A DNA stretch of 64,000 bases from Cirrosporium novae-zelandiae (Eukaryota), in NCBI GenBank assembly GCA_026023565.1, contig JAPETS010000047.1, positions 62,001-126,000 on the forward strand. Direction: 5' to 3'. Under the pieces are notes generated by a model. That model was not told where the DNA came from and ran no database searches. It was given only the letters and a program-made list of their open reading frames with translations. Positions 4,497 to 64,000 of the stretch are shown here, piece by piece; the stretch's first letter is position 1, and each line of letters opens with the position of its first letter. The position numbers and the translations under genes are program-made.

Positions 4497-6341
4497 TTAA
4501 TACGTCCTAGCAAACCGCTTCCGGATCTGACCTCCATAGCGGAAAAATAACCATGGAAATGGCAGAAAGAGCATGGCGATAAAACCTAGGAGACTGGTAC
4601 CCCAACCGATTCCGAGGGACTTGTACATTGGGAGACCGGCGAGTGGGAGCACGGCGCCGATGAGCGAGCGAAGGACCGTATTTGCTGCAAGAGCAGAAGC
4701 GGCATACAGCTGATAGGCATCTACAAGATAAGTTTGGACAGGCATCTGTGTAGGAAGAGAGTTGGTTAATAAAATCTGTTGAAGAATGTGGAGCTGGATT
4801 GGCATTGCACTCTTGGAGGTGAAGGAGCAATATAGACACGAGAGAAAAAGATACAGGAGTGCCAGTATAAAAGAGAGATAATCTCACCATAACAGAAAAG
4901 AAGCCAATCCCGAAAAAGGATGTCCCGATTATTGGAACTATCCAATGTACACCTTTATCTGCAGTCCAACCATACCAGAAAAGCCCCACCGGTAGAGTCC
5001 AGGACAAGAAAATCATGGGTGGAAGACGAAATTCAGGCCTGGCTTCCCCATGTTTTTTAGTCAACTTGACGAGTATTTTATCGCTTGTTATGCCGACCAC
5101 AATAACACCAACCATACAGCCAATTCCAATGCCGATATAGGCGAGGCCTACGGTCCCCTCGGAGAAATGGTATTGGGTAGTGTAGACTTGGCTGAATGTC
5201 GTAAAAAGAAGGTAAAGATAACCGAATATGATGGCAAGGTATAATGCCAGAATGAGGATGATGGGATCGAAAATGAGCATCTTAATTGGGCGTTTGATAG
5301 CAAGCCAAAAGAGTTGCTTAGGAGATCCAGGAGTACTATATTTAGGACGTAAGGATGTATTACCGGTCTCCTTGATCAGTCTCTTCGTTTTCCGTTCCAA
5401 TAGAACTGGTGCATATGTTTCTTTAAGGCATATGATGAGGAGAATGGCAACAACCCCAAGAAGAATTGTCAGGACCCAGAAAACCCACCGCCAACCCTTG
5501 GCTTGTGACAAAAACCCTCCAGCAATCGGCCCTATCACAGGTCCTAGTAAGGGTCCCAAGGCAAACAGAGCCATTGCGACACCTCTTTTCTCCCGTACAA
5601 AAATATCGGCAATGACTCCTCCGCCAAGGGACATGGGGGCGGATCCTCCCATACCAGCCATTATTCGAAAGAAGATGAATGAACCAATGTTCGGCGCAGT
5701 AGCACAACCGACGGTAAATCCAAGAGCAACTATATTAGAAATAATGTACACAGGTGTTCGACCGTAAAGTTCTGACATTGGCGCAATCCTGGTTGATTGT
5801 GGTGATAAGTCATTTGATCTTAATGGACACGTAGGATTGCATTCATCTGACTTACAACAATGGCCCGAAAGCAAATCCTAACAGGTAAGCCGAGACTACA
5901 AAAGACGCCAGCTCGTTGTTCGTGTTATGGAAGTCGGACATTAAGCTCTATGTCAAGTTAGCACATTCACAGGACTCAAATATATGGATATGCACTGACC
6001 GAAACCCCAGGCGCAAACATGGACGATGCCAATGGCCTAATTGAAAAAGCCAAGTTAGACACAACCATCAAGTTCATTAGATAGCTGAGAGCGTACGTGA
6101 GAAAGCTGATACTTGCTACAATAGCCATCGTGGTGACCTTCCTCCATGTTGACCAATTTCTTGGGTTTGCTGGATCATCAGGTCCATCCCAATCAATTTC
6201 ATTGGAATCTTTGACAGGGGGATCGTTATGAAACGAATCAAGCTTTTCTGTTTCCGTTGTTTTTTCCTGTTGTTTTTCAATGTCAACAGTATCTTGACTC
6301 GACTCTGGGCGTTTTCCTGTTGTTGTAGTGGATTCAGCCAT
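4497..6341 (-). CDS. MFS drug:H+ antiporter (DHA1 family), multi-exon
   Basis: [15 protein letters not shown]-terminal motif, [35 protein letters not shown] and YLVDAY...AASALAAN spread over in-order minus-strand ORFs with intron signals. Confidence 0.92.
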
Positions 6342-8015
6342 GATTTTCCACGACTGATGAGATGGTGAAAAGCTGAGGAACGAACATTTTAAAGGAAGAG
6401 ATTATCAACAGTAGTCGTAGTAGCTGCAGCTGAAGCCGAAGCTCGGGAAACCAGTCGGTCGGTCATTTGAATAGATACATTTCGGTGAATTAGACTAGGT
6501 GGCGTTGAAGAGTACTAATTAAACAATAATTACTGAGTAGACTATTACCGACACCGAGTTACTTTACCAAAGCACAAGTAATTAATTAGTGCTTGTAAAG
6601 AAAAACAATACCCCGCGCTTCGGCTTTTTGAATGTCCGTCACCGAGCCAAGGAAATACCCGATAGCGGACCAGATATTCCGATGACCGATGCCATTGAAA
6701 AGTAATTCATTAATTCATTAATTACTGAAGCCTGAGGCATCCAGAACAGCCGTTGAGCCATTCATGTCTTGGCAGGGGTAAGACCCTTATCATTTGTCTC
6801 CAATTAACTTTTCAAGTCACTGCAACTTTCAGGTCGGTAAGCACTACTTCTGTTGATACAACCACTCTCCCCTTGAACTTCTCTCATGATTCATGACTCG
6901 TTAGAGATATTATGTTACCAGCAAGCCAAGATTCTAAATATGGTGGTTAATGGTCTGCAGGAAAAACAAAACCAGCATTCTCATAACTGCTAGAGGAGGT
7001 ACAGTACAACCCATCAGCCTTGGGCAGGCATCATGGATTTACAGAAGCCCCCTCACGGGGCCTCTTGTAGCTACAAAAGCCCATTTCTTGTGACCGTTCG
7101 GTTTCAGGCCGTTGGACTATTCCTCAATACATGCCAACGTGAATCGTGGTATTAAACCATGTTATCCACAATCGCGACATCATGCAATCAGGAAATTAAA
7201 TATCTGATGTTTTTTGAAGAATTTTCTTGAGCGTGTTTGATCCTGCAAAAATCTAGCTGCTTGTTCTGGCGTGTGTGTTCTGTACATGTTCATCTGGTGT
7301 CGCTTCGTGCCGTCCCTCTCATCCTTCATCGCCCACACCACCTCACCCCACACCCCTTTGATTAAATCCCTGCCGAGGCTGTAATGTTTGGTTTTCAGGA
7401 CTTAATGACAATCTAACTATTGTGCCAGATCGGATTGAATTAACCATATACTGATGCCAAGAACCGAAATAGGCGTGCATCTCAAGATAACCAAAACAAG
7501 CGTTCCTAACGGATATGGAGTTTCAATTGGGCCTATGAGTCGATCAATGCCGAAATTCTGATATCTGATTGGATCGAGGACCTTGATATCCATCTACATC
7601 CTTTGCCGCTCATCCTTCTTGATGGTTGCATCACCATTTTATTTTATTTGTGCTTCTTGGGTTAGTAGTAGCAGAGGGGATAATACATGGCATTGGACTG
7701 GTAATAGATTGCAGTAAGAGTCGCGGGAAATAATTAGTGCTTATCACAGTGCGGGTTTTCGAAAATGTACATATATCCCTTGGATTAGATCTCTATGCAT
7801 TGTTTTGGAGAGCATACCTTCAATCGTTCACTTCAACTTCATCTGAGCCTCGCCATTCTTTCGAGGCCTTGGATCTTTTTTCAATTGCTTCAATTGATAC
7901 ACTCTCTTTCACAAACATTCAAATTCTTGTCCACTCATTAAACCAGCCAATCCTTCAAGTAACCACTTACCCATTCATTCATTCATTTAAATCACATTCC
8001 TTTGCAAATGCCAAC

Positions 8016-45281: not shown

Positions 45282-47100
45282 GGCGATGATGAGGTTGCTG
45301 AAGCACGCAGAGAGGTTAGCACTGGCACGACTATTTTCTCTCAGTTATCAAGATGATGGAATCAGGAATTACTTACTGGACCTAAGATAGGAAACATGAA
45401 CTGGAAGTTTCTGGCCTGGCCGTTTCTGAAGATGAAGTTGGAAAGGTAGAAACGAAGCTCCATTTTGAAATATATATTTTTATATGCTTGAGATGGTGCA
45501 TTGGTAGTAATTCACTATGATGAGAACCAGACCAAGTGAGTGTTGACTCAAAACAACACAGCACAGACTAACAGAAATCCCTTCTCTCCATAAAATTCTC
45601 AACAGAAGAAATGTCCAATGTTAGACTGACCCACAATTCCATTGCCCATTACAAGCTCAACCGCTAGATATTCCGTCTACTACTTGTATTCCATACCTAG
45701 CCACAGACAGACTACCCTGTGGTAGGTAAGTATCATGAAATTGATCTCTTGGTAAGAGGATATCCCAAAGCAACCTCAAGTATTTATTTGTTTTATTAAC
45801 CAAAAGTCCAACAATAACAACAATAGCTAACCCCCCCCCCATCAATCAACAATAAATACAAACATCACAATCACACACACAACACTTAAACCTAACTTTT
45901 CATGAAAAAAAAATACCTTATTCACCCGTAATCTGAACAAGGGGAAGGGAATGATGAACCAGACCTTGATTAATTACCCAAGGCCTGTTTGGTCTATCAC
46001 CTGTATATGATATTAGAATACTTGGGATATTAAAGTATTACTGATTAAATTATAGACAGACTATGTTTTGACTTCGTTTTAGGGGTGAGGCTATACCTAT
46101 AGTCTCAAGGTTTGTTTGTTGATTTCCTCTCCAGGACATCTGCATCTTCTCTGCCACACGATACCATTACGACTACCGATGTCAAAGCAGCAATTGCTCG
46201 GGGAGTTTGTTCCTTACGCTCCCTATACCTCTACTACAAAATCGAGGTAAACCAACAGAAGGACATTCAGCACAGACATCCTAGATGTGGTAAAGATGCT
46301 GGAAGTTGAAATTAAGTTGATGGGTGATTCCCCAATTACTTAAATTTGACCTCGAGTTCCATACATAGTAGCTAGATTCCCCACATGATAGGGCTGCTCT
46401 CTCCTTACTGAAGAATTAATATGAGATGAAAGTCAACAATGGTGGTGATAGTGGCGGGGTTAGCTCCTCTCAACGTCAGAGGCAGGTGGGCAATTTGCTT
46501 ACCTAAGGTGGGTGGGTCAAATAACTTCTTATCCTTAAATTACGTCATTGCCAACTTATCTGCACAAAAACATCATATCACAGTACGTGGTACCACCACA
46601 GGACACTAACACCACAAGAAAAAACAAAAAACAAGAAAAATGGTTTTGGGTTAATTTAATTTCTGCAGCTAGATATTTGCGCCCCTTTTGGAACTTTACA
46701 GCTGTAACTTTTTAGCTGTAACTAGGTTAATAACCCGCCTATCTCTATCTGCCGTACCTCTCTCATTCATTCATCTAACCTACATCTTTGCATTTGCATT
46801 TATATTTACAGCACTTGTATACAAGTATAACAATCGGCTTCCCTGACAGACAGACAAACAAACAAACGAATGGTCCTAGACTATTTGTTGTTTTTGTTGT
46901 TTCTCTCTCTCTCTCTATGTGCTATTTGAAGTAGGAGGGTTTATTGGATTCTACTACTACAGTGGACGGACAGACAGACAGACAGAGAGGCAGACATAGG
47001 AGGAAGGAACCCAATTGATAGTTTGCGTATCCTCCTCCTCCAACGCCTTCACCACCACCACCACCACCACCACAGCAACTACAACACCGACAACCAAAAA

Positions 47101-47540
47101 ATGCTCAAACGCCTAACAATAACCCTAATAAACATCTTCTGTACCCCTCCCCCCTCCCTCCAATCCCACCCTCACTAACCCCCTCATTAGTCCCCCCCCT
47201 CTCCGTCTTCCTCCTAACCGGTCTCGGCACCGACCTCTTCATAAACTGCGTCCTCTTCCTCCTCGCGATAATCCCCTCACACATACACGGCTTCTACATC
47301 AGCCTCACATATTTCAATCGGAAACGAAAGGTCAGGAAGGGGAGGTATCCGGGCGATTGGAGGAGCGGGATTTATAGTCAGAGAGTTCAGTATGGGGGGG
47401 CTAGTGGGGCGGAGGTTAGGAGGCTGAGGGATGGGGATGGGAGTGGAGAGAAGAGAGGGAGGAGAAGGGGGGGTGGGGGGAGGAGTAGTGAGGGTATGGA
47501 TAAGAGTAAGAGGGATTGGGGGTTTGGGCCTGCGGAATGA
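47101..47540 (+). CDS. Pmp3/UPF0057-family small membrane protein (129 aa)
   Basis: Absent from the ORF track. Exons 47101-47140 and 47191-47540 give MLKRLTITLINIFFPPLSVFLLTGLGTDLFINCVLFLLAIIPSHIHGFY, matching the Pmp3 PPL-V...IN--L-LL--IP--IH--Y pattern. Confidence 0.85.
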
Positions 47541-48822
47541 GTGAGTGAACGGGTGTTGGAGGAGGGCCGCAGGATGTGTGTGTGGATACAGGGATATACG
47601 ATTTAAGAGGATAAGATAAACCATTGTTATGATATATGCCTTACAAAATCAACCCATCGCATACGACAACGACAACGATTCTCACGAAAATGAAAAATAA
47701 AAATCGAAATAGGAAATGAAAATGCGCCTGCAATAAACCATACATACATACATATGGACGTTGTGCTACTGAAACTCCCTTCCTTCACCCCCCTCACTCA
47801 ACTTACTCTCTCTCTCTCTCTCTCAGCGACCCAAACCTAAACCTAAATCGAATCAATTGAATCAATTGGGCTATCAACTCATTCCAGGTCACGCTTTACA
47901 CTTGAAAAAGTTATCTTTTCAAAAAAAAAAAAAAATAAGAAAGCCCGAGATATAGGTTGCATGTTATATGTATCGAGGCCCTATACTATACTATATATGC
48001 GGCATTGGCAGCGGCAGGGATGGCGGTGGGACTTTGTGGTGGTTAACTTTTATTGTTGGATTTGGGGGAAAGGCCTTTTGGAGAGAGAGAGAGAGAGCGG
48101 GGTGAAGGGTTTTTTGTGGTTAAAGGGTTGAGGGTATTTGATTTGATGGAGGAGAGATTGGGAGAGGAGAGGAGTTGAGGGACGTGGATGGGGATGTTGG
48201 TGGTGGTATTGGCATGTATGTATATATGTAGAAGTATAGGACGGGAGTTGGAGGTATTTTTATTGTATGGATGATATGAGAATATTGATATAAATTTATA
48301 TATATATATATATAAAATAAAGCTCAACTGATGATTGTGGCGAGGGGATCCCTTGTTGTTGTTGTTGTTGTTGCTTGTTGTTGTATCATCAAATTTACTT
48401 TCACTCTGATTTCCGTTTCCATTCTCTTCATAAGAGAGTACTATGCATTTATTTCACCTTAAGACCCACAGTACTTGGTTTTTTATATCATATAAGGGGA
48501 GCAGATTCATTGGATGGGAATCGGATACGTAAGACTAAGCTCCGCGGAGATTCACGTCCTTGTCTACGCGTCACACGCTTGAATATTCGTTCTAATAAGT
48601 AAGCAAAAAAGAGGTTAATGACTCATTCCTTCCTTCCGATGGCGGACATAAAAACCCCAGCTATCTGTCCCTACAATAATATATAAGATATAGTTTACCC
48701 ATTGACTTGTTAGCTAGCTTTTTATGATCTACAATAATACTATTCTCTCTATTCTCTCTATTCCCATAATATCCAGGTTTTAAAGGTATAGTTCTCATAA
48801 ATCATAAAAGCCGAGCAACAAA

Positions 48823-49773
48823 ATGGCCTTCCCCTCCCCCGTCCGGGCGCCCCAGCACGTCCTGGACCTCCTCCACCAGCTTCACCAACAGTCAGTTGAG
48901 CAAGAAGCGGCTATAAACCCCACCAAGGGCAAGTTCGTCTCCACAGACAATCTAGGCGACTCCGAAGACAAGCGGCCAGCCTTTGCGCGACCCGGCTTCG
49001 ACGACCTGATGCGCGACAAGTTCATCGCGCTCGACGAGGATAAGTGCCACTTCATATACCAGCTTATCGGCGCCACGGGGGCCACAAATGTCGTGGAGGC
49101 CGGCACCAGCTTTGGCGTGAGTACCATCTATTTGGCGCTGGCGGTGGCGCAGAATAATGCTGTGTTGGGGAAGCAAGGAAAGGTGTTTGCGACGGAGAAA
49201 GAGCCTGAGAAGGCGGCCAAAGCGAGAGAGTACTGGAGACAATGTGGGGAGAAGGTGGAGGAGGTGATTGATTTGCGGGTGGGGGATCTGCTGGAGACAC
49301 TGAAGTCGGATTTGCCGGAGATTGATCTTCTATTGCTCGATAGTAAGCATGCATTTGTCCTTTATTTTTTTCTTTATCTCGAGCCAATTGAAATCTTATT
49401 ATTTCAGTTGCTGCAATCTTGATGATGGTGATGATGATAATGATAATGATGATGCTCAATTATTCAAACTCAGCAATCGTCTAGATTCCAAGATAGCTAC
49501 GTTGAAGCCATATTTTTTTTCCCACTCCATTCCCCAACGACAAGAACTGACGTGGAATACGATGATTTAGTTTGGACACCTCTTGCCTTGCCTACCCTCA
49601 AGATAGTCCAGCAGAGGATGCGACGTGGCGCTGTTGTGCTCGTAGACAACACTATTTCCGGTGCTGCAGGCTACAAGGACTTGCTGGACTATCTTAATGC
49701 TCCTGGCAGCGGGTTCCAGAATATGACTGTTCCGTTCAGTAATGGGTTTGAGATGAGCGTTTACCTCCCTTGA
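48823..49773 (+). CDS. class I SAM-dependent O-methyltransferase, 2 exons
   Basis: VVEAGTSFGVSTIYLA, GDLLETL, and LLLDIW...VLVDN formed across intron 49343-49570. Confidence 0.9.
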
Positions 49774-49993
49774 GAATGAATGGGTTGGTTATATGATGGG
49801 GGACGTGGTAATAGGCATAGCAATTATTATATCGCGGCAGAGTAAGACCAAAACCCTTACTAACTTCCTATCAACTAGGCTGCCTAGGAATCTGGGGATA
49901 TGGGATACCTGAGGCCTGTTTATATAAGACTTTTCTGTTAGCTAGAATATCAATTAAAAAATATTTCCAAACTGTTTGTGATGTTTGTTTGTG

Positions 49994-50120
49994 CAAAGAC
50001 CGGTCTGACTGGTCGAGGGTGGTTCGCATGTTTGAAGAGGTGCATTCGCTTAATTTGCTAATCTCGTGAATGCACCTTCAAATATGCGAAACCACCCTCG
50101 ACTAGTCAAACTGATCTTTG
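49994..50120. repeat. ~55-bp imperfect inverted repeat with ~16-nt loop
   Basis: Left arm CAAAGACCGGTCTGACTGGTCGAGGGTGGTTCGCATGTTTGAAGAGGTGCATTCGC versus reverse complement of right arm CAAAGATCAGTTTGACTAGTCGAGGGTGGTTTCGCATATTTGAAGGTGCATTCAC. Confidence 0.9.
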
Positions 50121-50261
50121 ATACTTTGGAGCAGCTCTGTATTTTGAAACAAATCCCAGACTAGGCTTAAGATTTTCTGGGTATATTGGCTGCTCTTACT
50201 AAACCATGTTTTAACTATCAAGTGTATCCGTTGATCATCTTCGTTATCCATCTTCCACTCT

Positions 50262-50899
50262 CTACGGAACCAATTCGACCTTATCAAGCATGCTCCACGT
50301 TGGCACCTTCTTCGGATCATACCCTCCTTGTCCATCGAACCGGTGTTCTCTCTTCTTCTTGTTAGAATACCACATGGCAGTATCGCGCACGATATCCCAA
50401 TCAGTCGCAGACGTCCCCAAAGCTTTTTCATCCTGCGTAAGCCGATCCAAGGCTTCCTTTATCCATTCAACACAGTTCCAATGATCGTAACCAGGCTGGC
50501 CAGCGCGGACTGGAGTCGCTTCCAAGACCGATTTGAGTCGCTTCATATTTTTGACTTTGCCGATTAAGATTCGGACGAGGAGCATAGCTGTTGGCTCAAG
50601 CGTGATTTTGCGCTCTTCATATTCCCACGTTGATTGCAATGACTGCGCGTCTAATGACATTCTGTTTCTAACATCGAAACGCGTGCCTCTCTCGCCTTCG
50701 TCAGGCTCGATTTTGGGGCCAACAATAAAGGCCCAGTGATACCTGTGAAGGTTTAGAAAACCTTTCGATGATGGATGGTCTGTCTCCTATCCCCTTAGGC
50801 CATGAGCGTTTTAACTTACGTATCTTCTAGACCTGGCATTTTTGGTGCCCCGCCACGGGCATGAAGGGCAATGTAGAGACGATCTTTATTAGAATTCAT
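50262..50899 (-). CDS. conserved fungal hypothetical protein (DUF6914-like), 2 exons
   Basis: MNSNKDRLYIALHARGG...YHWAFIVGPK...LLVRILIGK...WNCVEWIKEAL...VPTW. The His and WNC-Cys motifs are typical of this family. Confidence 0.78.
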
Positions 50900-53802
50900 A
50901 GTATATCTGTTTCACGAATTCTATGAGGCAATGGCAATGAAACACACTTTACTAAGAAGTTTTTGGATTGCAATTTTTCGATCCGAGGCTGCCAGGGATC
51001 AAGCAGGGGAGGGAATATATAAAGAATCTAGAACCTTACCTCTGTCCTACGGTTCGAGTGAATTTGGGTGTCATCGGCCTTTCAAATGCAAGTCAAGGGA
51101 GTGTTCCCGACGAAGTCATAGAGCGTTCCTGCAGATTAAATTCTACCCAAAGGGCAGCCTCCGAGTCACTATCTTCATTGACCAATTAATTATTACCTTG
51201 TACCATTTTCATTGTATGTACCTCCGACCAACTCACCGAATCACCCTCCCCCTCCTCAGCAACATCATGCCCGTCATTTCCGCCGTCTGCCTAGTTGTAC
51301 ATCCTTTAGTCGCAGGCTTCTCTCCGATCACAATCTGTGTTTCACTTGTTGTGTTCCATTCCGTAAATAACACAACAAAAAGGTCAAGCTGAGTCAAAAA
51401 AGAATAATGATGATTTACACACTAGGCTGATATCCAAACCTTGTCGGGGCAAAGTGACATGCAGGCATATATGAACCCTTTCTATATACAAGGTACTCGG
51501 TCGATTACTGTACAATTTGACTTTATATATTAAATGGGGGGGGGGGGGAGAGAATAAGGCGCCGGAGACAAGCTTCTTCTGCTTCTTCGAACTTTGCTGT
51601 CTGTTCTCTCTCTCTCATTTAATTAGTTAAACCTATTCAAATCAAGAACCGAGACTTATCTTTTACCGATGGATAAAGAAAGCAAAAAACATGTTCATAA
51701 CCGATTTTTAACCATCTGATTTCTTTTGTACTTCCCTTCTTATTTGTCAGCTTTTGTTTATACCTGTGGGAAAGGAAAAAAAAAATCGAACCTTTTCATT
51801 TAACCAACCACATCCCTCCTAGAATCATAAATCATAAACTTCCAAAAAAAAAAAACTCATCAAAGCCTTAAGACAGACAAACAAACAAACAAACAAACAA
51901 ACAAAAAGAAAGAACAATTATTTCGTTATATATCTATGTTTAATAGAATAATATATAGCTGTTGTAGCAGCAGTTGGGAATAAGGAAAGGAAATACATAA
52001 TTAGGACTGGGGCTGAACAAGCTTGCTTGCTTAATTGCTTGCTTGTTTCGGAAGGGATGGATATATATGAATTTGCATTGATTGCTTTTACTTTATATAT
52101 AGACTAGGAATTTTAGCTCGGGCTTTTAATTACTGTGAATATATAGTTAAGGCCTTAGTCTAAACAGTAGGAACCAATCAATTACCTCAAAGAATTAGGC
52201 TTGAAAAATTCAAAAAATTCTTTCGCAATACCACAATAGGTAGGGTATTATGCTGCCCCTTTCTTTCTTTCTTTCTTAAAACTTTAAGAAATTATCTGAA
52301 AGAAATCTGAAAGCTTTGAAAAGGTTAGTTGGAATGTACTTGATGATGATGGAGAAGGAGAGAGAGGAGGAGGAAGGGGAAGGGGAGGGGGTTTGGTTTT
52401 TTCTTGGGGGGATATATATGTATTAGGCGGGGGAAGAGGGGGACGTAATGATAGGTTGAAGTGAAGTGAATTGAATGAGATTGAAATCAAGACTTGTCCA
52501 CTGTACATATCCATCTATGTGGACTAAAAATTCACTACCCTCTACCCCTAACTCCTGCCTCACTGCAAAACGGAATCCCAAGAAAGACGGTGATTGTCCG
52601 ACGACACGAGCTCAGAAGGACGCACGCCTTTCATGGAGAGCCTGAAGTTGTTTTGATCGTGGCACTTTCCTTAGCTAGTGTTGCCAGTGGAGCAAACACA
52701 AATGTGATTAGAGCTGCGAACTTCATGTCAAGTGTGGGCGAGGCGAGGCGAGGTGGTGAAAGGATGGCGAGGAGGGGATGGAACCTGTATTGTAGGATCA
52801 AACAGGGCGTGATGGAAGGGTTTTGTTTAAATGCTCGTTTCCTACGCGTGGAAGGGAAATTCAACTAGTAATTGATGGGGTGCTCAAGTGATCAAAGACA
52901 TACATACATATATAACGAATTCAGTAGCTCGGCAAGAAACCCGAGGGAAAAGATGAGAACTTTTGCTCGACGGAACTGAAACTGCAGCTTTTCCTCATAG
53001 AATCTTTGAAAGGAGAAAATAAACGAGATTAAGAAAGAAACGACTGCATATTTGAATAGAAAGAAGCCGCTGCTGCTTCGTCCAAAGGCGGATTTGCTGC
53101 ATGAAAAGACATCTTTAATGAAATAATAATATATCAAATGTTTGATATGTATTGCATCAATGGCCAGATCTTCCTTAGATCAAGTAGATCATCAATTTTC
53201 CATCGTCAAAACCCCACTTTTCTATCAGTTCCTACCTAGTAGAGAGGTTTAGGAACTCGACGACGACGACGACATCATCATTAAGTCATCAACTAAAGCT
53301 GAACTACCTTGTTCAACTTCCAGTGAAATGCATTTGAAGTAGGAAACCACTGTTGCTAGCCTTGAGGACGATGCCGTTCAAAGAAAGCGACATATCCGAT
53401 GACTAGGAATTTGAAAGATAAGGAGGACCTGAAGGTTGAGAAGCATTGTGGGTATGAAATTTGTGCGAGGGAATATGTATGAATTTCCTCGTATTCGTAT
53501 AATAATTATACAGAGTCCCGGATTCATTGAGCCGAGGTCCACGGAGTTTGAAATGCCGGATACCGACATTACAGTACAGGTATCCTAGCGGCCGAAAACG
53601 CCGAACCTCCTTGCGAGAAAATATTAGAAAATATAAAATATAAAATATAAAGGTATACCAAGTAGAGTGGTCGCAAAGGCCAGTTTATTTATTGAACGCT
53701 TTAATCTGCTTTTCATTCTTGATGATTGTAGCTCGCATACATTAATTATTCTTCGCTCATCTTGCAACTAATCTCGAGCCCTTTAAGTCTTTTACTTGAG
53801 CC

Positions 53803-54531
53803 TCAACTATCACCATGTATTGGGCATGATATTCTACTTTTCGCACAACACCACTTTTGAATGCAATGCGCATGCCAGATACACAACCTTCCGCAGGGCG
53901 ATCTCCCCAGTCGTTGCCCAACTTCAAACTCTTCAAGACATATAACACAATCCCGACCATTGAGCTCATCAGAACAATCCTTCCATGTTGCAGTAAAAAA
54001 CTTCAAAGCTAGTGAGCGAGGATGAGTAAAAGCAGGTTGGATATGTCTAAAAGATAGTTCCGTTAACCTGGGCATTCCGTTCCCCACAAATTCCGCTCCC
54101 GCCCTTGAACTCGTGTTGGTGCCCGATGGCGGGGTCAAGCTGGTATCCGAATCATCCGTATCCTCCGTCAAATCAATATAGGTAGCTCTACGGGGTAGCT
54201 AAGGCGACCGGGGTCGTAGAAACAATTGATTAGATCGAGGTTATCTATCCTGTAGTTCTCCATCGTCCGACGAAACAACGATGACCTCTGCTCTTTCTTG
54301 CTGGGGTGGCCTGACTCGTCGTCCCGAATTTATGTGATCCTCTTCCCTTTCTGAGCGGCCCCTCTTCCTCCTTGGGTTGTTCCTTTCGTTTTCACTCTCT
54401 CATAGAGTACGCTCCCTGCTTTGGCCGTTGTTATTGAGGTGGACTAATGGGCGACGATTATGATTGTGTCTGACACTTGGCTCTGGTGCGAGAAGGCACT
54501 GGGGGAAAGGGGGCAGGTGGCTCGACGGCAT
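53803..54531 (-). pseudogene. disrupted RING-H2-type ubiquitin ligase gene with SIM-like motifs
   Basis: One frame from ATG 54531 to CVICLEEFEVG...C...C-WH--CI--W...CP-H. It is interrupted by in-frame TGA (54402-54400), TAA (54243-54241) and TAG (54201-54199). Confidence 0.65.
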
Positions 54532-55112: not shown

Positions 55113-56675
55113 CTAAACCTTTTCAACCTCCTTCGACGATCCACCAGCAACTTCTTTAATATCATCTTTTCTTTGCGGCACAACCTCTGAGTTGCCTTTC
55201 TCCTCCCTCGGAATCTCGTCTGCCGGAAACACATGCGTGGCCCACTGCTTAACAGGCACCTTGTCCTGGAAGAACAGCTCCACCTCCAGGGTTGATCTAC
55301 CAGTAGTCTCCCCAACGCAGAACCATACATATGCTAGGGTGATGCAGGTTGTCCCTGCATACACAAATCCAAGCATCGGACCTAGATTGGCAGAGTAATA
55401 GAGGTAAGGCGAAGTGAAGACCATGGCCCAGACGGTGAAGAAGAAAGACACGAAGGCGCAGGACATGATCTTGCTGCGGTTCCTTCCCGCCGCAGCTTCT
55501 CCAGCAACAGTATAGGCAAGGGGTCCGAGGCCAAAGTTGAAAGCGACAATGACAGCGTAGGAGAAGACGACAATGGTAGTGCTGTAGGCTGTTGTCATGG
55601 TTTCGGGGATCCCGAGGCCGCCAACAACGATGAGGGCGATGAACATGATGAGCGATGTGATCAGCAGGTTCTCACGCCTGGGTACCTTGTTACCCAGCAG
55701 GACGGAGACGCCGACGGAGATGACTTGAAGGACGTTTGTGATGAGAGATATGGTAAAGGGTTCGGCCATACCGATGGATTCGGCAAAGACGACTCCGTAA
55801 GAATAGAAAAATTGAATTCCGTTGATCTGTTGTGCTACCATGGAGCCGCAGGCATAGAGGACCTTGCGTCGCTCTATGGGGTCTTTCACGAGGGAGATCC
55901 ACGTAGATTGGCTGGCCTCCACTCTCTCGTTTTCTACAGCTAGGCTAAGAGCCTCTATATCTAGCGCAGGATCATAGTCTTTTTCGCCTCTGTGGATTTT
56001 CCTTAAGGATGCAGCCGCCTCTTGGATCTTGTTCTTACCGACAAGCCAAACGGGACTCTCAGGAAGGAATGGAAGGCCCATCAGCATGCACAAAGGTAAA
56101 AACCCCAACAATCCCATCGGAATCCGAAAGGAGGCGGTAGAGGAAATGCCTTCAGTCCCCTGCGTGATTGCCGATCCAACAAGCTGAGAGCACGATTGCA
56201 TAAACTGAAACATCATCGTTGCGGGGCCGCGGATATCTTGCGGAGCAACCTCCCCGATATACAAGACGCAAGTCACCGTGAATTGACCGATGCCAAGGCC
56301 AATAAGGATACGTCCGAAGCAAATGAGACCTTCGTTACCATTATCGGCGATCTGAACAATCGCTCCAGCGATGATGAAAATGGAAGCACAGAAGAAGACT
56401 CCTTTTCGTCCGAAGTAATCGTTTATGGGAGCGGCGAGCAGGGCTCCGCAGAGTTCGCCGACGTAAATAATTGATGCGGTCAGAGATAGAAAGGAGGTTG
56501 TCAACGCGATTTTGCCAGTCGAGTCCCGAGTAGTGCCGTAGAGGTTGATGAAGGGCCTCATGCCTTGAAGGCCGGTGTAATAAATCTGATCATAGCCGTA
56601 GCAGAGGGCACCGAGGGTAGAAATGGCACAGAAGAAGATGGCCCATTTGTGTTTGGTGAGGGTGGTTTTGAACAT
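55113..56675 (-). CDS. sugar porter (MFS), maltose/alpha-glucoside-permease-like, intronless
   Basis: YGYD, DYFGRK, GEVAP--RG, PESPVWL, QQINGIQF and GETTGRST-EVE. About 12 TM segments. ATG context CAAAAAATG with upstream TATATAAAA. Confidence 0.92.
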   Translation of the reverse strand: MFKTTLTKHKWAIFFCAISTLGALCYGYDQIYYTGLQGMRPFINLYGTTRDSTGKIALTTSFLSLTASIIYVGELCGALLAAPINDYFGRKGVFFCASIFIIAGAIVQIADNGNEGLICFGRILIGLGIGQFTVTCVLYIGEVAPQDIRGPATMMFQFMQSCSQLVGSAITQGTEGISSTASFRIPMGLLGFLPLCMLMGLPFLPESPVWLVGKNKIQEAAASLRKIHRGEKDYDPALDIEALSLAVENERVEASQSTWISLVKDPIERRKVLYACGSMVAQQINGIQFFYSYGVVFAESIGMAEPFTISLITNVLQVISVGVSVLLGNKVPRRENLLITSLIMFIALIVVGGLGIPETMTTAYSTTIVVFSYAVIVAFNFGLGPLAYTVAGEAAAGRNRSKIMSCAFVSFFFTVWAMVFTSPYLYYSANLGPMLGFVYAGTTCITLAYVWFCVGETTGRSTLEVELFFQDKVPVKQWATHVFPADEIPREEKGNSEVVPQRKDDIKEVAGGSSKEVEKV

Positions 56676-57091
56676 TTTTTGCTGCGTCAAGAACGAGTCA
56701 GAAGAGACGATTGGATTCCAAGTCTGAGGAGAAGGAGGAGAAGGAAGTTGATGAATATATCAGTTTTACTGATTGATATCGCTCATGGACCTCGGTGGCT
56801 TTTATATAGAGAGAAGATCTAATTAAAAAATAGAACCTATTTGCATTCGTTCCAAGCTCTCTAGTGAAAGGACGAATCATCCTCCAAATATAGTAGCACA
56901 AGTTTGCGGGGTTTGCGGGGGGGGGGGGTGGGGACTTGGTTTACTTTGCTGCTATAATACCACAGAAAGAATCATTTCTGAGCTGGAGAATCCACATTCA
57001 GATCATATGTCTGTACTAGAGTAAGAGTAAAATATTGCCTCGTTCCTTGCGATCGGGGAGGAGAGGGATAGGGGGATGGGGGGGGGCTATC

Positions 57092-57111
57092 CGTCGGATG
57101 CTTCCCCGATA
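57092..57111. promoter_or_regulatory. putative Zn2Cys6 binding site CGG-N8-CCG (copy 1)
   Basis: CGTCGG-ATGCTTCC-CCGATA in the divergent transporter/aldolase intergenic region. Confidence 0.6.
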
Positions 57112-57470: not shown

Positions 57471-57490
57471 CATCGGGGGAACTTCCGATG
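57471..57490. promoter_or_regulatory. putative Zn2Cys6 binding site CGG-N8-CCG (copy 2)
   Basis: CATCGG-GGGAACTT-CCGATG. Confidence 0.62.
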
Positions 57491-58232: not shown

Positions 58233-59380
58233 ATGTCCGATAAGCCTACCACTACCAACACCTTAGAAGCCATTAGGGCCACTGGCACAGTTCTCATAGC
58301 CGATACGGCGAGTTTTCGGGGTTAGGGACCTCCCATTTTATAATCCATTTATGATAGATTAATATAACTAATATATGCTATATGCTATACTCTAGAAATT
58401 TCACGCTTCCATCCCTCTGAAGGAACAACCAATCCCTCCCTCCTCTACGCAGCCGCGCAACAGCAGCAGCAAGCCTACTCTACTTTTCTCGACCGCACGG
58501 TCCAATATGCTAGATCTTTATCACCAGTGTCATCGCCTTCCGAGTGTCTCTCACTTGCCGTGGAATTCCTCTCCGTCCAGTTTGGTACGGAAATTTACAA
58601 GATCACCGGCAGAGTTGCCACCGAGGTGGATGTCTCGTACTCCTTTATGAGCGAGAAAACGGTGGAGGCTGCCCTGAGGGTCATTGAGCTCTATGCTAAA
58701 GAAGGGGTTCCTAAGGATGCGGTGCGTATCAAGATTAGTGCCACGTGGGAAGGGATTCAGGCTGCGAGGATTCTGGAGCGCGATTATGGTGTTAGTGTTT
58801 TGGTGACTATTGTTTTTGGCATGGTTCAGGCGATCACGGCGGCGGAGGCGGGGGTGAGTTGTATTGCGCCCTATGTTGGGCGCATTGATGATTGGCACAA
58901 GGCGCGTGGGTTTCAGGGGGCGGATATGGGGGTTCAGAGGGTGAAGGATATGCAGAATTATTTGCGCAAATATGAGTTCCGGACGAAGGTTATGGCTGCT
59001 AGTTTTCGGAATATAGAGCAGGTCAAAAGGCTTGCTGGATTGGATCTGCTCACGGTAGCGCCGGGGATCTTGGATCAATTGGAAAAGTGTACGGACGATG
59101 CTCCACCTCAGTTGACGGTGGAAAGCGGTAAGACGTCTTTCTTCGATTTCTTCTAGGATAATTGTGGCATTTCTTTCATCACCGGCGCATTGCTAACCAT
59201 TGAGCAGCTAAAGCGGCTGAACTCCCGGAGTTATCATATATCAATGATGAAGGCGCTTTCAGATGGGCCTTCAACTGGGATGCCTGTGCGGTGGAAAAGT
59301 CAGCAGAAGCCATGAGACTCTTTGCCGAGGATACGGATCGTCTCAAAGCCTTGCTGGCGAGCATGATTACGAGTACCTAG
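58233..59380 (+). CDS. transaldolase-family class I aldolase (330 aa, 3 exons) with FSA-like residues
   Basis: Exons 58233-58320, 58396-59127 and 59208-59380 total 993 nt in frame. Motifs ADTA, TTNPSL, TEVD, Schiff-base RIKISATWEGI, IAPYVGRI, MAASFR and C-terminal E--FRW--N-D--AVEK. Confidence 0.93.
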
Positions 59381-59655
59381 GGAGTCAATACAGCAATTGT
59401 AGTAATCAGGAGATGTCTTGAGATTCAAACTGAAAGTAAAACTAGACGGTCGTAGTGTTGATGTGGAATACCACATTATCATTGATCCAGGGTTGCCATT
59501 TTGGTGCCATCACCATGTATTTGAGAAGGACGACATCATCAACTGCCTCTCGGAAACTATAATGTACCTGGCTCCAAATGCTATTGGATAGAACTTAAGT
59601 GACCCACTTTTCATGTAGGTCAGGCTTAATTGATGGGGAGATCTCATTAATAGTG

Positions 59656-59675
59656 CATCGGGAGCTTCCCCGATG
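59656..59675. promoter_or_regulatory. putative Zn2Cys6 binding site CGG-N8-CCG (copy 3)
   Basis: CATCGG-GAGCTTCC-CCGATG, about 280 bp upstream of the kinase ATG. Confidence 0.62.
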
Positions 59676-59956: not shown

Positions 59957-61195
59957 ATGCCGTACATTGTTGGTCTCAACAGCGGTTCATCTTTTGACGG
60001 CGTCGATGCTGTCCTTTGTTCAATTGACTTTGCCCCCGACGGTCATCCTGCGCGTCCCAAGTATATTTCTGCCTTGACAGTCGACTGGCCTGAAGAGCTT
60101 TGCCCTCTTATTTTGAGAGCTTTCAATAACACTCTCACCCTTTTCGAACTGTGTCGCCTCAATTATGCCGCCGGAGCCGTATACGCCGAAGCAGCAAATA
60201 AATTATTAGCTCAAGCTGGGCTCAAACCTGAAGATATTGATGTGGTTGGATACGACGGACAAACAATTTACCAGGAGCCTGTCGACAAAACAAAAGTCAA
60301 AGAGTACGAGCAGAGCGGAAATAAGAGCTTGGTAGAAATGTGGACCAAAGGTGGTTTTCCATGTGGACTTTTCATTGTGGAATCAGGCGTCGTTGCCGCC
60401 CTAACCCAAATTACCACTGTTACACAATTTAGACCGGTTGACCATGCACTTGGTGGCTCTGGTGCACCGTTGATGCAATATCTTGACTTTGTTGCTTTCC
60501 GCGATGAAGGTCCTGTCGTGACGTTGAATATCGGCGGTATTGCAAACCTGCAGTTGGCAGATGCTGACCGTAATAAAATGATGGCATTTGACACAGGCCC
60601 TGGAAATGTCATGATTGATCATGTCGTCAAAACAAGAACTGGACGTGGATATGATAAGGATGGAGAATTGGCGGCTAAAGGGACTGTCATCGAACCATTA
60701 TTAGAATACCTGAATAGTCACCCATTTTTTACCCGAAGTCCTCCCCGATCAGCATGGAGATTGGATTTCGGAGCTGACTTTGCGGATCGTATTTTAAAAG
60801 AATACGGTTCTACATCAACTGAAGACCTATTGGCAACATTCACTACATTTACAGCACAATCAATTGAACGATCGTTTGTAGATTTCGTTCTGCCAAAAGC
60901 GCCTGTCACCAAACTTATTGCCAGTGGTGGAGGTACACGGAATGCAACCCTGATGAAAAATTTAAGCCAAAGACTGGCGGTGCACGGAGTCAAGACACGC
61001 TTAAGTGATGATTTTGGTCTTCCGGCGGCTTATAAGGAAGCTATCAAGTTTGCAACGTTGGCCTTTGCTGCAAAAAATGGTTTGGCCAACAATATTCCCG
61101 CAGCTGGAGGCGCTTCATCCTTTGCGGTACTTGGGAAGTTGAGTTTGGCACCGCGGCTTGCGAAGCTCGGAGATTCTCCAGTTAATGGTAAGTGA
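59957..61195 (+). CDS. AnmK / levoglucosan-kinase family anhydro-sugar kinase (divergent), intronless
   Basis: GLNSGSSFDGVD, GQTI, FR--D---GG-GAPL, NIGGIAN, FDTGPGN--ID, YDKDG, GGG--N, KEA and LGK. Confidence 0.93.
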   Translation: MPYIVGLNSGSSFDGVDAVLCSIDFAPDGHPARPKYISALTVDWPEELCPLILRAFNNTLTLFELCRLNYAAGAVYAEAANKLLAQAGLKPEDIDVVGYDGQTIYQEPVDKTKVKEYEQSGNKSLVEMWTKGGFPCGLFIVESGVVAALTQITTVTQFRPVDHALGGSGAPLMQYLDFVAFRDEGPVVTLNIGGIANLQLADADRNKMMAFDTGPGNVMIDHVVKTRTGRGYDKDGELAAKGTVIEPLLEYLNSHPFFTRSPPRSAWRLDFGADFADRILKEYGSTSTEDLLATFTTFTAQSIERSFVDFVLPKAPVTKLIASGGGTRNATLMKNLSQRLAVHGVKTRLSDDFGLPAAYKEAIKFATLAFAAKNGLANNIPAAGGASSFAVLGKLSLAPRLAKLGDSPVNGK

Positions 61196-61456: not shown

Positions 61457-63672
61457 TCATACTTGTAAAAAGTTATGTCGTATATTCTGGAATATCATAA
61501 GAGCATCATGTGAAACCGGAGAATCTTTGGCGCTCTTGCTCAATATTTCTTCTGACACATGAATTAGTTCCTCTATCGCGTTCGGGTCTCCGCAATCACG
61601 GAGGAGCCAAAAGAGTGAGGGAGTAGCTTGAGCTAGAATCAGTGCCATTCCGGCGGCCATAAGACTATTGGGGCCAAATTAATTGGGCTATTCACAATCA
61701 CTTCTGAATTGACCAAGGGATATTATCACTTACGTCTGCAGTTCAATCCAGCTGCAAGATGACGTAAAGCATAGCCTTGTTCCCTGTCGATTTGGCTGCT
61801 GCTCTTCGATTCTCTTGCAAGTTAGTACGATGAGGGCAGCACTCTGTAGACATCTGCGGCAAGACTCGAACAACCAAAAGGTTGACGGATAGTCTTCTCG
61901 AGTATCCGCTAAGCGGGATGCCGAAAGCTCGAGGTCTTCATGCGCTAGATAATATAACATTGGCCGATGAAGAAGGAAACTGCAGGTGTAATAACGTAAT
62001 GCTAGGCTCTGAGAAAGTATTTATCAGTACCTTTAATCCAGGTTCCTACCACAAAAGAAGCTGGGTGCCTACGAGGACATTGTAAGAATTGATTTGAGAC
62101 GAAGTAGATTCTCTGGCACTGGAAACATCCTTTGGAAATTTAAAAAGAGGAGGTTGTCGATGATACCATTCATCCAGTCGGCTTTCTTGGAGAGTGACCA
62201 TCTGCATAATATCTCGTGGATGGCAATAGGCTTGATCAATGGTATAAAGCTCGCTCAGGGTTCGGTTCAAGTGAATCCTCAGCCAAATGTGGGCGGTCAT
62301 AGTATTGGTATCCAATGAAGGCAAATATGGCGACGGGATGCTATTAGGCAATAAAAGCCCACTACTAAGTCTCTCTGATATTTCTGAACTCGTCGGTGAG
62401 GGAGTCCCATCAACATGAGTCAGAAAATCACTTGATAAAGTGATATCAGCAATTTCAGCAAGACCATCCAACAGATTTAAGATATCCTTACCTTTCCTGC
62501 AGAAAATGAATATTCAAACAAGCTGGCCAATGTGCTGGAATAGTCAGATCCTTCCAGCCCCTTGAAAGCTGTCAACCAAATGGTGATATCAATACGGGAG
62601 AGGCGTAAACCCCATAATAAACAACCTAAATCTTACCTTTTAGCCCTCCTAGCAAGTCTATCACCAACCATCTCGATCATCCGAAGCGCATGATGTGGTC
62701 GTAGAAAACATATTGAGAAAATAATCACTGTAACTTGAAGTATGGGAATTGCGGTTTCATCAGGAAGAAAGTTTACCTTCCAAAAATGGGAGAGGGCTAT
62801 CCTGAAGCATGTATCAAAAGAGGCAGAAAGCGAAAAGCCCTGGTAGTTGGCAATGATAATTGACTCCTCAAATCGAGCTTGATGGAGCGCAATTGTCAGG
62901 ATTAAGAGTTCTTGGACTGAGCAAGCCGTCAACTGAAGCTGAACTTCGCCACCATCGATGCTTTGTGGGGGACAACGAGACCGCATGAGAGTCAGAATTT
63001 CATTCCGAGATATGGGAGAGCAATGATGTAATAGCTCCAGCAGGTCAATGCCCAAATCTGTAGCCTCAAAAAGCGCCTCAACACTAGCGATGGCCGAAGA
63101 AAGAGGAATGGTTGGTGAGCCATTCAGAGAGTTCCTCGTATCGACATCAAATGGATGGGCTTGTTCGGTGCGTTGAAGGTATTGCAGAGGCTCTATATTC
63201 GGAAGCGTAAGACATAGCCGGATTCTTGGCCAACATTGCGGCATTCGAAAGGTAGCCGCTGTATGAAGCTCTGGGAAGTGTGGATTCGGAGGAGAAATGT
63301 CACTGGTGGTTGAAAGAGTGCTGGGAAGCGGAACAGGGCTGGAGTGAGAATCTCCAATGCCATGGGCATCCAGATTGTCCAGTCGAGTTTCAATGCGATT
63401 GAGGCGAGCTAGGATATTGCCATCACTATATGGATAGAATGCTTAGTACATTCCATATCCTGAAAAGTAAACAACTGCAGCGCTCTAGTTGACAGGTATT
63501 CATACTTCTCAAGCAATGTTAGGGTCGGTCGGTAGACACAAGTTTTACCGGCGGCCTCACAATGGGAGCAGGTTGGTCGTCGTCCATCACATCTAGACTT
63601 TCTCGCCCGACAGATATCGCAAGCTAAGGAAGCTTTGAACTTCTTTCCAGGAGGAGGTGTACTGCTTGACAT
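61457..63672 (-). CDS. Zn(II)2Cys6 transcription factor, multi-exon
   Basis: ACDICRARKSRCDGRRPTCSHCEAAGKTCVY. Exon 2 gives a ILARLNRIETRLDNL coiled coil in frame with the 63244-62633 ORF, followed by fungal TF middle-region exons. Confidence 0.9.
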
Positions 63673-64000
63673 TGTGGATAGTGTGCAGATGGTAGAAAAG
63701 CATCATCAACGCCAGAATGATTCAAAAAGACAAGGGTCGTCATCGCCAGTGCACGCTAGTTTGATTCTGGTTAATTTCCGTGAATTATTTATATTTGTAG
63801 TTAGTTACTAGGATATTATGGTACCGAGATGTGGAGGTAAGACTGTTTCAGCCAGACGACCAGTCTACTCTTCTACTTGAAGCGTAGTTCAATCTGCCAG
63901 CCAGCCATAACCTCCACCAACATCTGAACGACTTCTGATTCCACAAACTTAATGATTTAGACTTTACATTTCCTTCATCTCCAGGGGCCGGATCGCTTAG

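Follow-up and report, generated by a model that had tools for sequence, protein, structure and literature searches.

The window analysed here is a 64,000-nucleotide stretch of Cirrosporium novae-zelandiae DNA (contig JAPETS010000047.1, positions 62,001 to 126,000; coordinates below are those of the window), which holds on its forward strand, at 58233-59380, a gene related to transaldolase and fructose-6-phosphate aldolase (TAL/FSA-like), accompanied by genes for a sugar transporter, an AnmK/levoglucosan-kinase-family kinase and a Zn2Cys6 transcription factor. As read from the sequence, the TAL/FSA-like gene comprises three exons with GT..AG splice sites and a spliced coding sequence that stays in frame: exon 1 (58233-58320) runs from Met1 to the first base of codon 30, intron 1 (58321-58395, 75 b, GT..AG) contains a CTAAT branch-like site, exon 2 (58396-59127) encodes the catalytic core and matches Pfam TAL_FSA, intron 2 (59128-59207, 80 b) reads GTAAGA..CTAAC..AG, and exon 3 (59208-59380) encodes the C-terminal helix and ends in a natural TAG stop at 59378-59380. 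The spliced product has 330 residues and a single terminal stop and is identical, up to ...ASMIT, to the public protein P0002, labelled by its source as a transaldolase from a C. novae-zelandiae metagenome-assembled genome (MAG). The public model has 376 residues: within 59378-59600, it skips the TAG at 59378-59380 by an extra predicted intron and so gains about 46 residues. In the AlphaFold prediction, residues 331-376 of P0002 show pLDDT values mostly below 50 (means of 41-56 over 10-residue blocks), and homologues stop at the position of the natural stop and have no counterpart to this tail; we therefore took the 330-residue form to be the right one. By itself, exon 2 (P0001, 243 aa) matches TAL_FSA (PF00923) with 189.7 bits (cut-off 27, E 9.2e-56), its best solved relative by HMMER being yeast YGR043C/NQM1 (3cq0, E 2.6e-56), and the 330-residue protein can be aligned with TalB/Tal1-type structures across about 325 columns, having the size of that subfamily (about 320 aa).

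The active site was compared with those of known family members through the HMMER alignment to NQM1 and through a MAFFT alignment to the E. coli TalB and FsaA sequences, both taken from the MG1655 record. In the former, vlVTIVF lies opposite cnMTLLF and iAPYvgr opposite iSPFvgr; in the latter, the TalB segments CNLTLLF and ISPFVGR correspond to TLGTAVY and VAPYVNR in FsaA and to VLVTIVF and IAPYVGR in the window protein. TalB Asn154, FsaA Leu107 and Leu165 of the window protein (TTG, 58800-58802) are equivalent, as are TalB Ser176, FsaA Ala129 and Ala187 (GCG, 58866-58868) and TalB Phe178, FsaA Tyr131 and Tyr189 (TAT, 58872-58874): at all three positions, the residue of FSA replaces that of classical transaldolases. 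An earlier sequence-only reading of this stretch had pointed out these three codons, which proved exact, and had drawn the same residue correspondences, which both alignments bear out. It was also right that the glutamate of the TEVD motif (Glu106, 58623-58625; TalB Glu96) and both phosphate-binding arginines are retained, the latter being Arg192 in VGR (58881-58883; TalB Arg181) and Arg234 in SFR (59007-59009; TalB Arg228). Further TalB residues that are kept include Asp17 (Asp24, 58302-58304, in exon 1), Asn35 (Asn42), Thr156 (Thr167, 58806-58808) and, in the phosphate site, Ser226 (Ser232, 59001-59003), and the Schiff-base Lys142 (58731-58733) aligns with TalB Lys132 and FsaA Lys85. In the TalB-DHA structure, Asn154 and Ser176 form hydrogen bonds with the C1 hydroxyl of the dihydroxyacetone (DHA) unit, and in FSA the acid/base system consists of Tyr131 together with Gln59.

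The window protein differs from TalB in one further residue near the Schiff base: the equivalent of TalB Leu130 is Arg140 (58725-58727), located on the same strand as Lys142 and two residues ahead of it. Residues i and i-2 of a strand point the same way, and by this register the guanidinium of Arg140 would lie beside Leu165/Ala187 and under Lys142; there, it could stand in for the polar ligands that were lost, hold an anionic group at C1 or form a pair with Glu38, Asp24 or Glu106. The suggestion that a hydrophobic Leu/Ala pocket at C1 could favour a 1-deoxy ketose has fared less well: the Leu and Ala residues are indeed in place, but a purely hydrophobic pocket is made less likely because the arginine is invariant in the clade described below.

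Structure prediction with AlphaFold, using a 37-row alignment, gave a mean pLDDT of 88.8 and a pTM of 0.83; 296 residues score 90 or higher. In the predicted model, strand 139-144 carries Arg140 and Lys142, strand 163-169 carries Leu165 and Thr167, and strand 185-189 carries Ala187 and Tyr189. The top Foldseek match was yeast NQM1 (3cq0, TM-score on target 0.94, rmsd 1.7), followed by mouse and human transaldolase and by TalB, including the engineered F178Y and E96Q/F178Y entries, with the short FSA/Tal forms ranked far lower. The predicted protein is of the full-length TalB/Tal1 architecture, an (alpha/beta)8 barrel whose strand 4 bears the Schiff-base lysine, in agreement with the TalB-sized enzyme that had been expected.

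The unusual residues are shared by many homologues. Our search covered 5.8 billion proteins, and the figures given here refer to the 120 matches listed: about 88 of these, at 56-70% identity, carry L..T.VF and APYVGR, and 33, at 48% identity or less, carry the canonical N.T and SPFVGR. Where the source names the organism, the clade matches all belong to the Pezizomycotina (Exophiala, Hyaloscypha, Talaromyces, Colletotrichum, Sporothrix, Ilyonectria and Clonostachys, with Stachybotrys, Verticillium, Venturia, Verruconis and others as further carriers). Leu/Ala/Tyr is present in 37/37 full-length clade members and Asn/Ser/Phe in 33/33 canonical transaldolases from the same search, and in total four positions differ fully between the two groups: L130R, N154L, S176A and F178Y (TalB numbering). 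The first of these, with Arg in 37/37 clade members and Leu in 33/33 canonical sequences, is a fourth invariant change that the sequence-only reading did not contain. Near-complete differences are E232Q (37/37 against 32/33), D31E, Q30S, A32G, A99V and L86Y. Given the 37/37 against 33/33 split, the signature is more than chance, and by these alignments the gene is a member of a conserved paralogue clade of the Pezizomycotina rather than a single odd gene; going by source names, Dactylonectria estremocensis has both types, P0028 from the clade and P0096 among the canonical forms.

Within the clade, 92 rows were chosen by Arg130, Leu/Ile154 and Tyr/His178, so that these three positions are circular in the following counts. 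Lys132 and Thr156 are found in 92/92 rows each, Arg181 in 90/92, Ser226 and Arg228 in 89/91 each, Asp17 in 39/40 and Asn35 in 55/55; Glu96 is present in 85/88, the FSA-type Gln being found in the remaining 3/88 (P0046, P0064 and P0247). Two clade members have His in place of Tyr. Both phosphate-binding arginines are lost (R181P, R228Q) in P0059 from Venturia inaequalis and in P0086, with Lys, Arg130, Leu, Ala and Tyr kept; these two proteins may use a non-phosphorylated substrate or may be decaying.

A wider view of the family was obtained with a clade profile against 1.84 billion representatives, which found 7592 family members. Aligning 441 stretches left 393 with TalB positions 96/130/154/176/178 all filled (48 were dropped for gaps), a sample biased toward the clade through the choice of query, in which the five-residue signatures were ELNSF (274), ERLAY (84), EYNSF (10), QLNAY (4), QRLAY (3), QLNSF (2) and 16 others with one each, including ELNAY, QRIAY, QRNAY, EQTAY, EYNAY and QMNSY. 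Arg130 occurs in 91/393 stretches, paired with Leu or Ile154 in 90 of the 91 and with Asn154 in one; in this sample, the pairing of Arg130 with Leu154 is essentially confined to the fungal clade. In prokaryote genomes, a scan with eight non-fungal Tyr-type queries returned 11 loci, with APYV-bearing proteins in Oryzibacter oryziterrae (91% to P0256), a Spirochaetia MAG, a proteobacterial MAG and a Parachlamydiales MAG. In each of these four genomes there is one or more additional TAL_FSA gene, which is plainly canonical (SPFVGR/STEVD) in two, Oryzibacter and Parachlamydiales, and on this evidence full-length Ala/Tyr forms are rare second copies in bacteria too. No AnmK neighbour was found beside the bacterial Tyr-type genes. 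On four contigs (L011, L012, L013 and L015, Verrucomicrobia-labelled and Chlamydiota MAG contigs), two TAL-family genes stand in tandem, seen as two tblastn matches about 250-400 b apart (at about 6000-7700 in L011-L013); the first is of SPFVGR type in L011 and L013.

The origin of the clade was addressed with two trees. A 91-row tree was built from the first 26 of the 36 full-length clade members, 17 rows with odd signatures, 16 canonical sequences from the protein search, 30 canonical representatives drawn at random, together with TalB and the window protein; all other rows were omitted. In this tree the clade is monophyletic (SH-aLRT 100, stem 0.47), lies outside the canonical fungal group and adjoins the Tyr-type rows with unstarred supports of 90-94. 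The clade is again monophyletic (SH-aLRT 99) in a 53-row tree (LG+C20), where a branch with SH-aLRT 97 splits 28 canonical-side rows (fungal canonical sequences, TalB and others) from the clade together with 10 Tyr-type rows; several branches of this tree are long, and the tree carries a long-branch warning. An approximately unbiased (AU) test did not reject a single group of the clade and 11 named canonical fungal transaldolases (lnL difference 14.6, p 0.236). The free trees place the clade with bacterial Tyr-type sequences, but given this AU result we do not claim a bacterial origin; the clade may be an ancient paralogue or may stem from transfer.

The neighbouring genes form the second part of the evidence. 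Divergent from the TAL/FSA-like gene lies a major facilitator superfamily (MFS) sugar transporter (55113-56759, reverse strand; Sugar_tr 2e-80), and downstream of it are the AnmK/levoglucosan-kinase-family kinase (59957-61195, forward strand, a 412 aa open reading frame; AnmK 6.1e-74) and the Zn2Cys6 transcription factor (reverse strand, approximate limits 61730-63702; Zn_clus 1e-11, with the domain within 63412-63702). The best solved relative of the kinase is the Lipomyces starkeyi enzyme levoglucosan kinase (LGK; E 2.7e-48), and the Asp of its FDTGPG motif aligns with LGK residue 212 (chain 4zxz_A) and is kept. We take Asp212 of LGK to be the catalytic base that activates water at the anomeric carbon. 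A passage of PMC10570956 makes a general statement on the catalytic aspartate in such kinases and another notes that many fungi encode LGK-like plus AnmK-like kinases.

Much of this arrangement recurs in other fungi. A metagenome scan returned 6 loci, 4 of which are clade members, with neighbours assigned by tblastn: L004 shows transporter (reverse), TAL (forward) and kinase (forward) arranged as in the window, L006 shows the same with the kinase cut by the contig end, and L003 shows a regulator, the transporter (reverse) and TAL (forward) on a contig that ends 270 b past the TAL match. Locus tags of clade member and kinase are adjacent in Phialemonium thermophilum (6004/6005), Verticillium albo-atrum (003745/003744) and Sporothrix curviconia (009607/009608), two apart in Stachybotrys chartarum (03626/03624) and four apart in Penicillium macrosclerotiorum (009565/009569). 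An indirect indication comes from contig sizes: out of 49 clade clusters for which the longest contig reaches 9 kb, 19 match a kinase cluster in exact longest-contig size (7 of these 19 contigs are shorter than 19 kb), with the P. macrosclerotiorum pair as a 20th match, and this count is a lower bound because 120 kinase clusters were listed. No TAL-kinase fusion was found in the best 120 of 126 longer proteins (E <= 0.001), among which the one clade member was P0411, whose 746-aa model also takes in unrelated domains. P0136 (Pleurostoma richardsiae, 434 aa) and P0184 (Fusarium mexicanum, 423 aa) contain only an AnmK domain and bear the source name "Transaldolase"; the name probably came over from a neighbouring gene model that had been merged, leaving a trace of this gene pair. 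The transporter, TAL-like enzyme, kinase and Zn2Cys6 regulator make up a conserved catabolic cluster that is probably co-regulated. We found no paper on the clade or its kinase pairing, supplementary material lying outside the search, and no substrate report for the fungal orthogroup of the window kinase in the literature searched; the passages concerned of PMC9020665, PMC10700024, PMC6231085 and PMC8140973 merely list transaldolase annotations, and in section 14 of PMC9476349 the assays do not discriminate between kinase specificities.

Two observations concern TAL genes near short-chain dehydrogenases (SDR): downstream of the TAL gene of the metagenomic locus L005, a PRK/uridine-kinase-family gene and an SDR gene lie at 5390-7618, and the lichen-fungus models P0441 and P0442 consist of a TAL domain (39-41% identity, below the 56-70% of the clade) merged with an SDR. 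Elsewhere in the window, Pfam matches at 47022-51392 include a Pmp3 proteolipid, an O-methyltransferase (48808-49419) and a DUF6914 protein (50265-50786, reverse strand), and a RING-finger protein is encoded at 53806-54198 (reverse strand); none of these four genes is conserved beside the cluster in L003, L004 or L006. The segment 26001-30000 has a low G+C content (0.40-0.42) and a strongly negative GC skew of -0.20 to -0.23, unlike the remaining window.

Further indication of co-regulation was found in the intergenic DNA. In the four transporter/TAL intergenic regions compared, a palindrome-type site of the spacing CGG-N8-CCG is the only one of its sort common to all, whilst no k-mers of 8-12 bases are shared across them. 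The more specific form CGGGG-N6-CCG has 3 matches in the window against 0.66 expected (3 or more in 5 of 100 shuffles), a count that includes the two sites that served to find the motif, and all 3 lie within the two intergenic regions of the cluster: 57095-57108 (reverse strand) and 57474-57487 (forward strand) in the divergent promoter region between transporter and TAL-like gene, and 59659-59672 (reverse strand) between the TAL-like and kinase genes. The site at 59659 is independent of the motif definition and falls inside an interval of 576 b out of 64 kb. Matches are also present at 2891 and 4851 in L004, at 5634 in L003 and at 1164, 2890 and 3047 in L006, where an additional match (4113) lies inside the kinase frame; L005 has none. 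The position of the third window site in the TAL/kinase interval recurs at 4851 in L004 and at 2890 and 3047 in L006, and the flanks are conserved in L003, L004 and L006 as TCGGGGRR-N4-YCCGA. We infer from this pattern that the linked Zn2Cys6 factor would control the three structural genes through this element.

By its aligned residues, the window protein is a class I (Schiff-base lysine) enzyme with a donor-pocket floor rebuilt by L130R, N154L, S176A and F178Y. Our preferred reading, which we hold at about even confidence, is that this member of the transaldolase/FSA family is an aldolase-type enzyme which, in a conserved cluster, works downstream of an anhydro-sugar taken up by the cell. The anhydro-sugar would be imported by the cluster transporter, after which the kinase would open the anhydro ring and phosphorylate the terminal oxygen; a ketose phosphate would arise either directly or by isomerisation of an aldose 6-phosphate and would be bound to Lys142 as a Schiff base. 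Tyr189 would serve as acid/base, as in FSA and TalB F178Y, and the three-carbon enamine would be protonated and released rather than held for transfer. Such acceptor-independent cleavage is plausible for the window enzyme, and we infer aldolase-type release because FSA residues occupy the three positions that separate FSA from TalB. In the relevant passages of PMC3962226, the F178Y exchange turns TalB into a DHA-dependent aldolase with a 70-fold gain in activity, as the sequence-only reading had stated; FSA itself prefers hydroxyacetone, with A129S raising its use of DHA 17-fold, and S176A added to TalB F178Y (F178Y/S176A) raises hydroxyacetone activity.

Several points weigh against the aldolase reading. 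The window protein has Glu106 where FSA has Gln59, and the retained Glu96 equivalent therefore indicates a hybrid catalytic apparatus in which transfer activity may persist; at 330 residues it is also not an FSA short form (about 220 aa), FsaA covering only its core. If the kinase yields glucose 6-phosphate from levoglucosan, a dedicated aldolase is not obviously needed. The gene association has exceptions: transporter, kinase and regulator were not found in the 12,982 b of the clade locus L005, the tags of Sporothrix bragantina are far apart and unpaired (007047 and 003618), and the kinase orthogroup numbers at least 120 clusters (63-77% identity) against about 88 clade clusters, so that in many fungi the kinase seems to work in the absence of the clade enzyme. 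Of the three motif sites in the window, two are not independent of its discovery. Finally, TalB-sized Ala/Tyr proteins also exist in bacteria and are no more functionally characterised than the clade.

Among the other explanations, an ordinary transaldolase isozyme (EC 2.2.1.2) of the cluster is credible, if rather improbable: it would boost non-oxidative pentose-phosphate flux during growth on the anhydro-sugar, with the four substitutions only tuning kinetics or donor affinity. Such an isozyme fits the complete TalB architecture and fold, the retained equivalents of Asp17, Asn35, Glu96, Lys132, Thr156, Arg181, Ser226 and Arg228, the source names, which say transaldolase, and the AU test, which leaves a joint clade with canonical fungal transaldolases unrejected. 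It does not sit easily with the exchange of both C1-hydroxyl ligands and the discriminating Phe for the exact FSA residues in 37/37 clade members, when F178Y by itself is described as making TalB an aldolase (PMC3962226) and at least one species has a canonical copy alongside (P0028/P0096). We consider it clearly unlikely, but worth weighing, that the protein acts on another donor as a class I aldolase or transferase, in which Arg140 together with Leu165/Ala187 fits neither CH2OH nor CH3 but a different C1 group, such as one that is anionic or otherwise polar, and fructose 6-phosphate (F6P) and sedoheptulose 7-phosphate (S7P) are not the true substrates. The near absence of Arg130 outside the clade in which it is invariant (91/393, 90 with Leu/Ile154), its predicted place on the strand of Lys142 and the co-varying D31E, Q30S and A32G on the neighbouring strand speak for this; Arg140 may, however, form a buried salt bridge with Glu38, Asp24 or Glu106 instead, the co-variation is phylogenetically non-independent, and neither the phosphate site nor the set of C3/C4-hydroxyl ligands is altered. 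A decaying or non-catalytic duplicate, to which the loss of both phosphate-binding arginines in P0059 and P0086 and the His-for-Tyr exchange in two members might point, is hardly credible in view of the catalytic Lys in 92/92 rows, the strong conservation over four fungal classes (56-70% identity), the intact open frame with canonical splice sites and the conserved synteny and cis-elements.

Returning to the aldolase reading, a more specific version of it, which we regard as very doubtful, is that the cluster serves a two-enzyme anhydro-ketose route and not levoglucosan, the kinase product then being split without an acceptor. In this scheme, 2,7-anhydro-heptulose (sedoheptulosan) or 2,6-anhydro-fructose would be converted by the kinase to S7P or F6P, whose cleavage would give dihydroxyacetone and erythrose 4-phosphate or glyceraldehyde 3-phosphate. 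Such a route would explain why the fixed partner of the kinase is a TAL/FSA-family enzyme and no isomerase. With sedoheptulosan as a carbon source on Biolog FF plates, the parts of three reports that bear on it record weak use by Botrytis cinerea and none by Neoarthrinium moseri and Ophiostoma novo-ulmi (PMC4974496, PMC12369201, PMC13612382); patchy use of this kind is compatible with a patchy accessory cluster and is not evidence for it. Were the anhydro-ketose route true, the window protein would be the first natural full-length "transaldolase" acting as an aldolase and would provide the first physiological role of FSA-type chemistry. To our knowledge, that role is still unknown, even in E. 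coli. If the aldolase reading holds, evolution has repeated on a full-length scaffold the moves made by engineers, has added N154L and L130R and has kept the result across several fungal classes; the partnership with kinase, transporter and regulator would supply a concrete, testable metabolic context, and the enzyme could become a new scaffold on which to build DHA- or hydroxyacetone-dependent biocatalysts and help explain the use of pyrolysis- or plant-derived anhydro-sugars by many ascomycetes.

Set beside known systems, the protein represents a novel natural form of the TalB-type scaffold that is conserved and combines FSA-type with additional changes, and its gene lies in an undescribed, putative anhydro-sugar cluster. 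Turning a transaldolase into an aldolase through F178Y, S176A being used to shift the donor preference, is a textbook example of engineering an enzyme, and the window protein resembles E. coli TalB F178Y and F178Y/S176A (3cwn, 4rz6, 9qpk) in its TalB-size fold (Foldseek TM-score on target 0.93), in Tyr at 178, Ala at 176 and the phosphate site, and in keeping Glu96, as does the F178Y single mutant. Unlike these, it is natural, eukaryotic and conserved, is 35-37% identical in sequence and adds N154L and the invariant L130R; we know of no engineered TalB variant that carries this pair. With E. coli FsaA (1l6w; 31% identical in a 12-row alignment, E 1.4e-11), it shares the equivalents of Leu107/Ala129/Tyr131, Thr109, Lys85 and Arg134, three clade members having the Gln59 equivalent as well. 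FsaA, a decamer of 220-residue chains, differs in that the window protein keeps Glu, has Arg in place of Val83 and possesses the long N- and C-terminal helices of TalB. The window kinase resembles L. starkeyi LGK and bacterial AnmK in its Pfam AnmK match and conserved catalytic Asp; its relation to the characterised LGK is that of a distant paralogue (E 7e-41 to 2.7e-48), and it falls in a tightly conserved fungal orthogroup. Yeast Tal1/Nqm1 (YGR043C, 3cq0) and human TALDO1 (1f05) are the closest solved sequences and folds to the TAL/FSA-like protein and, unlike it, carry Asn/Ser/Phe together with Leu130.

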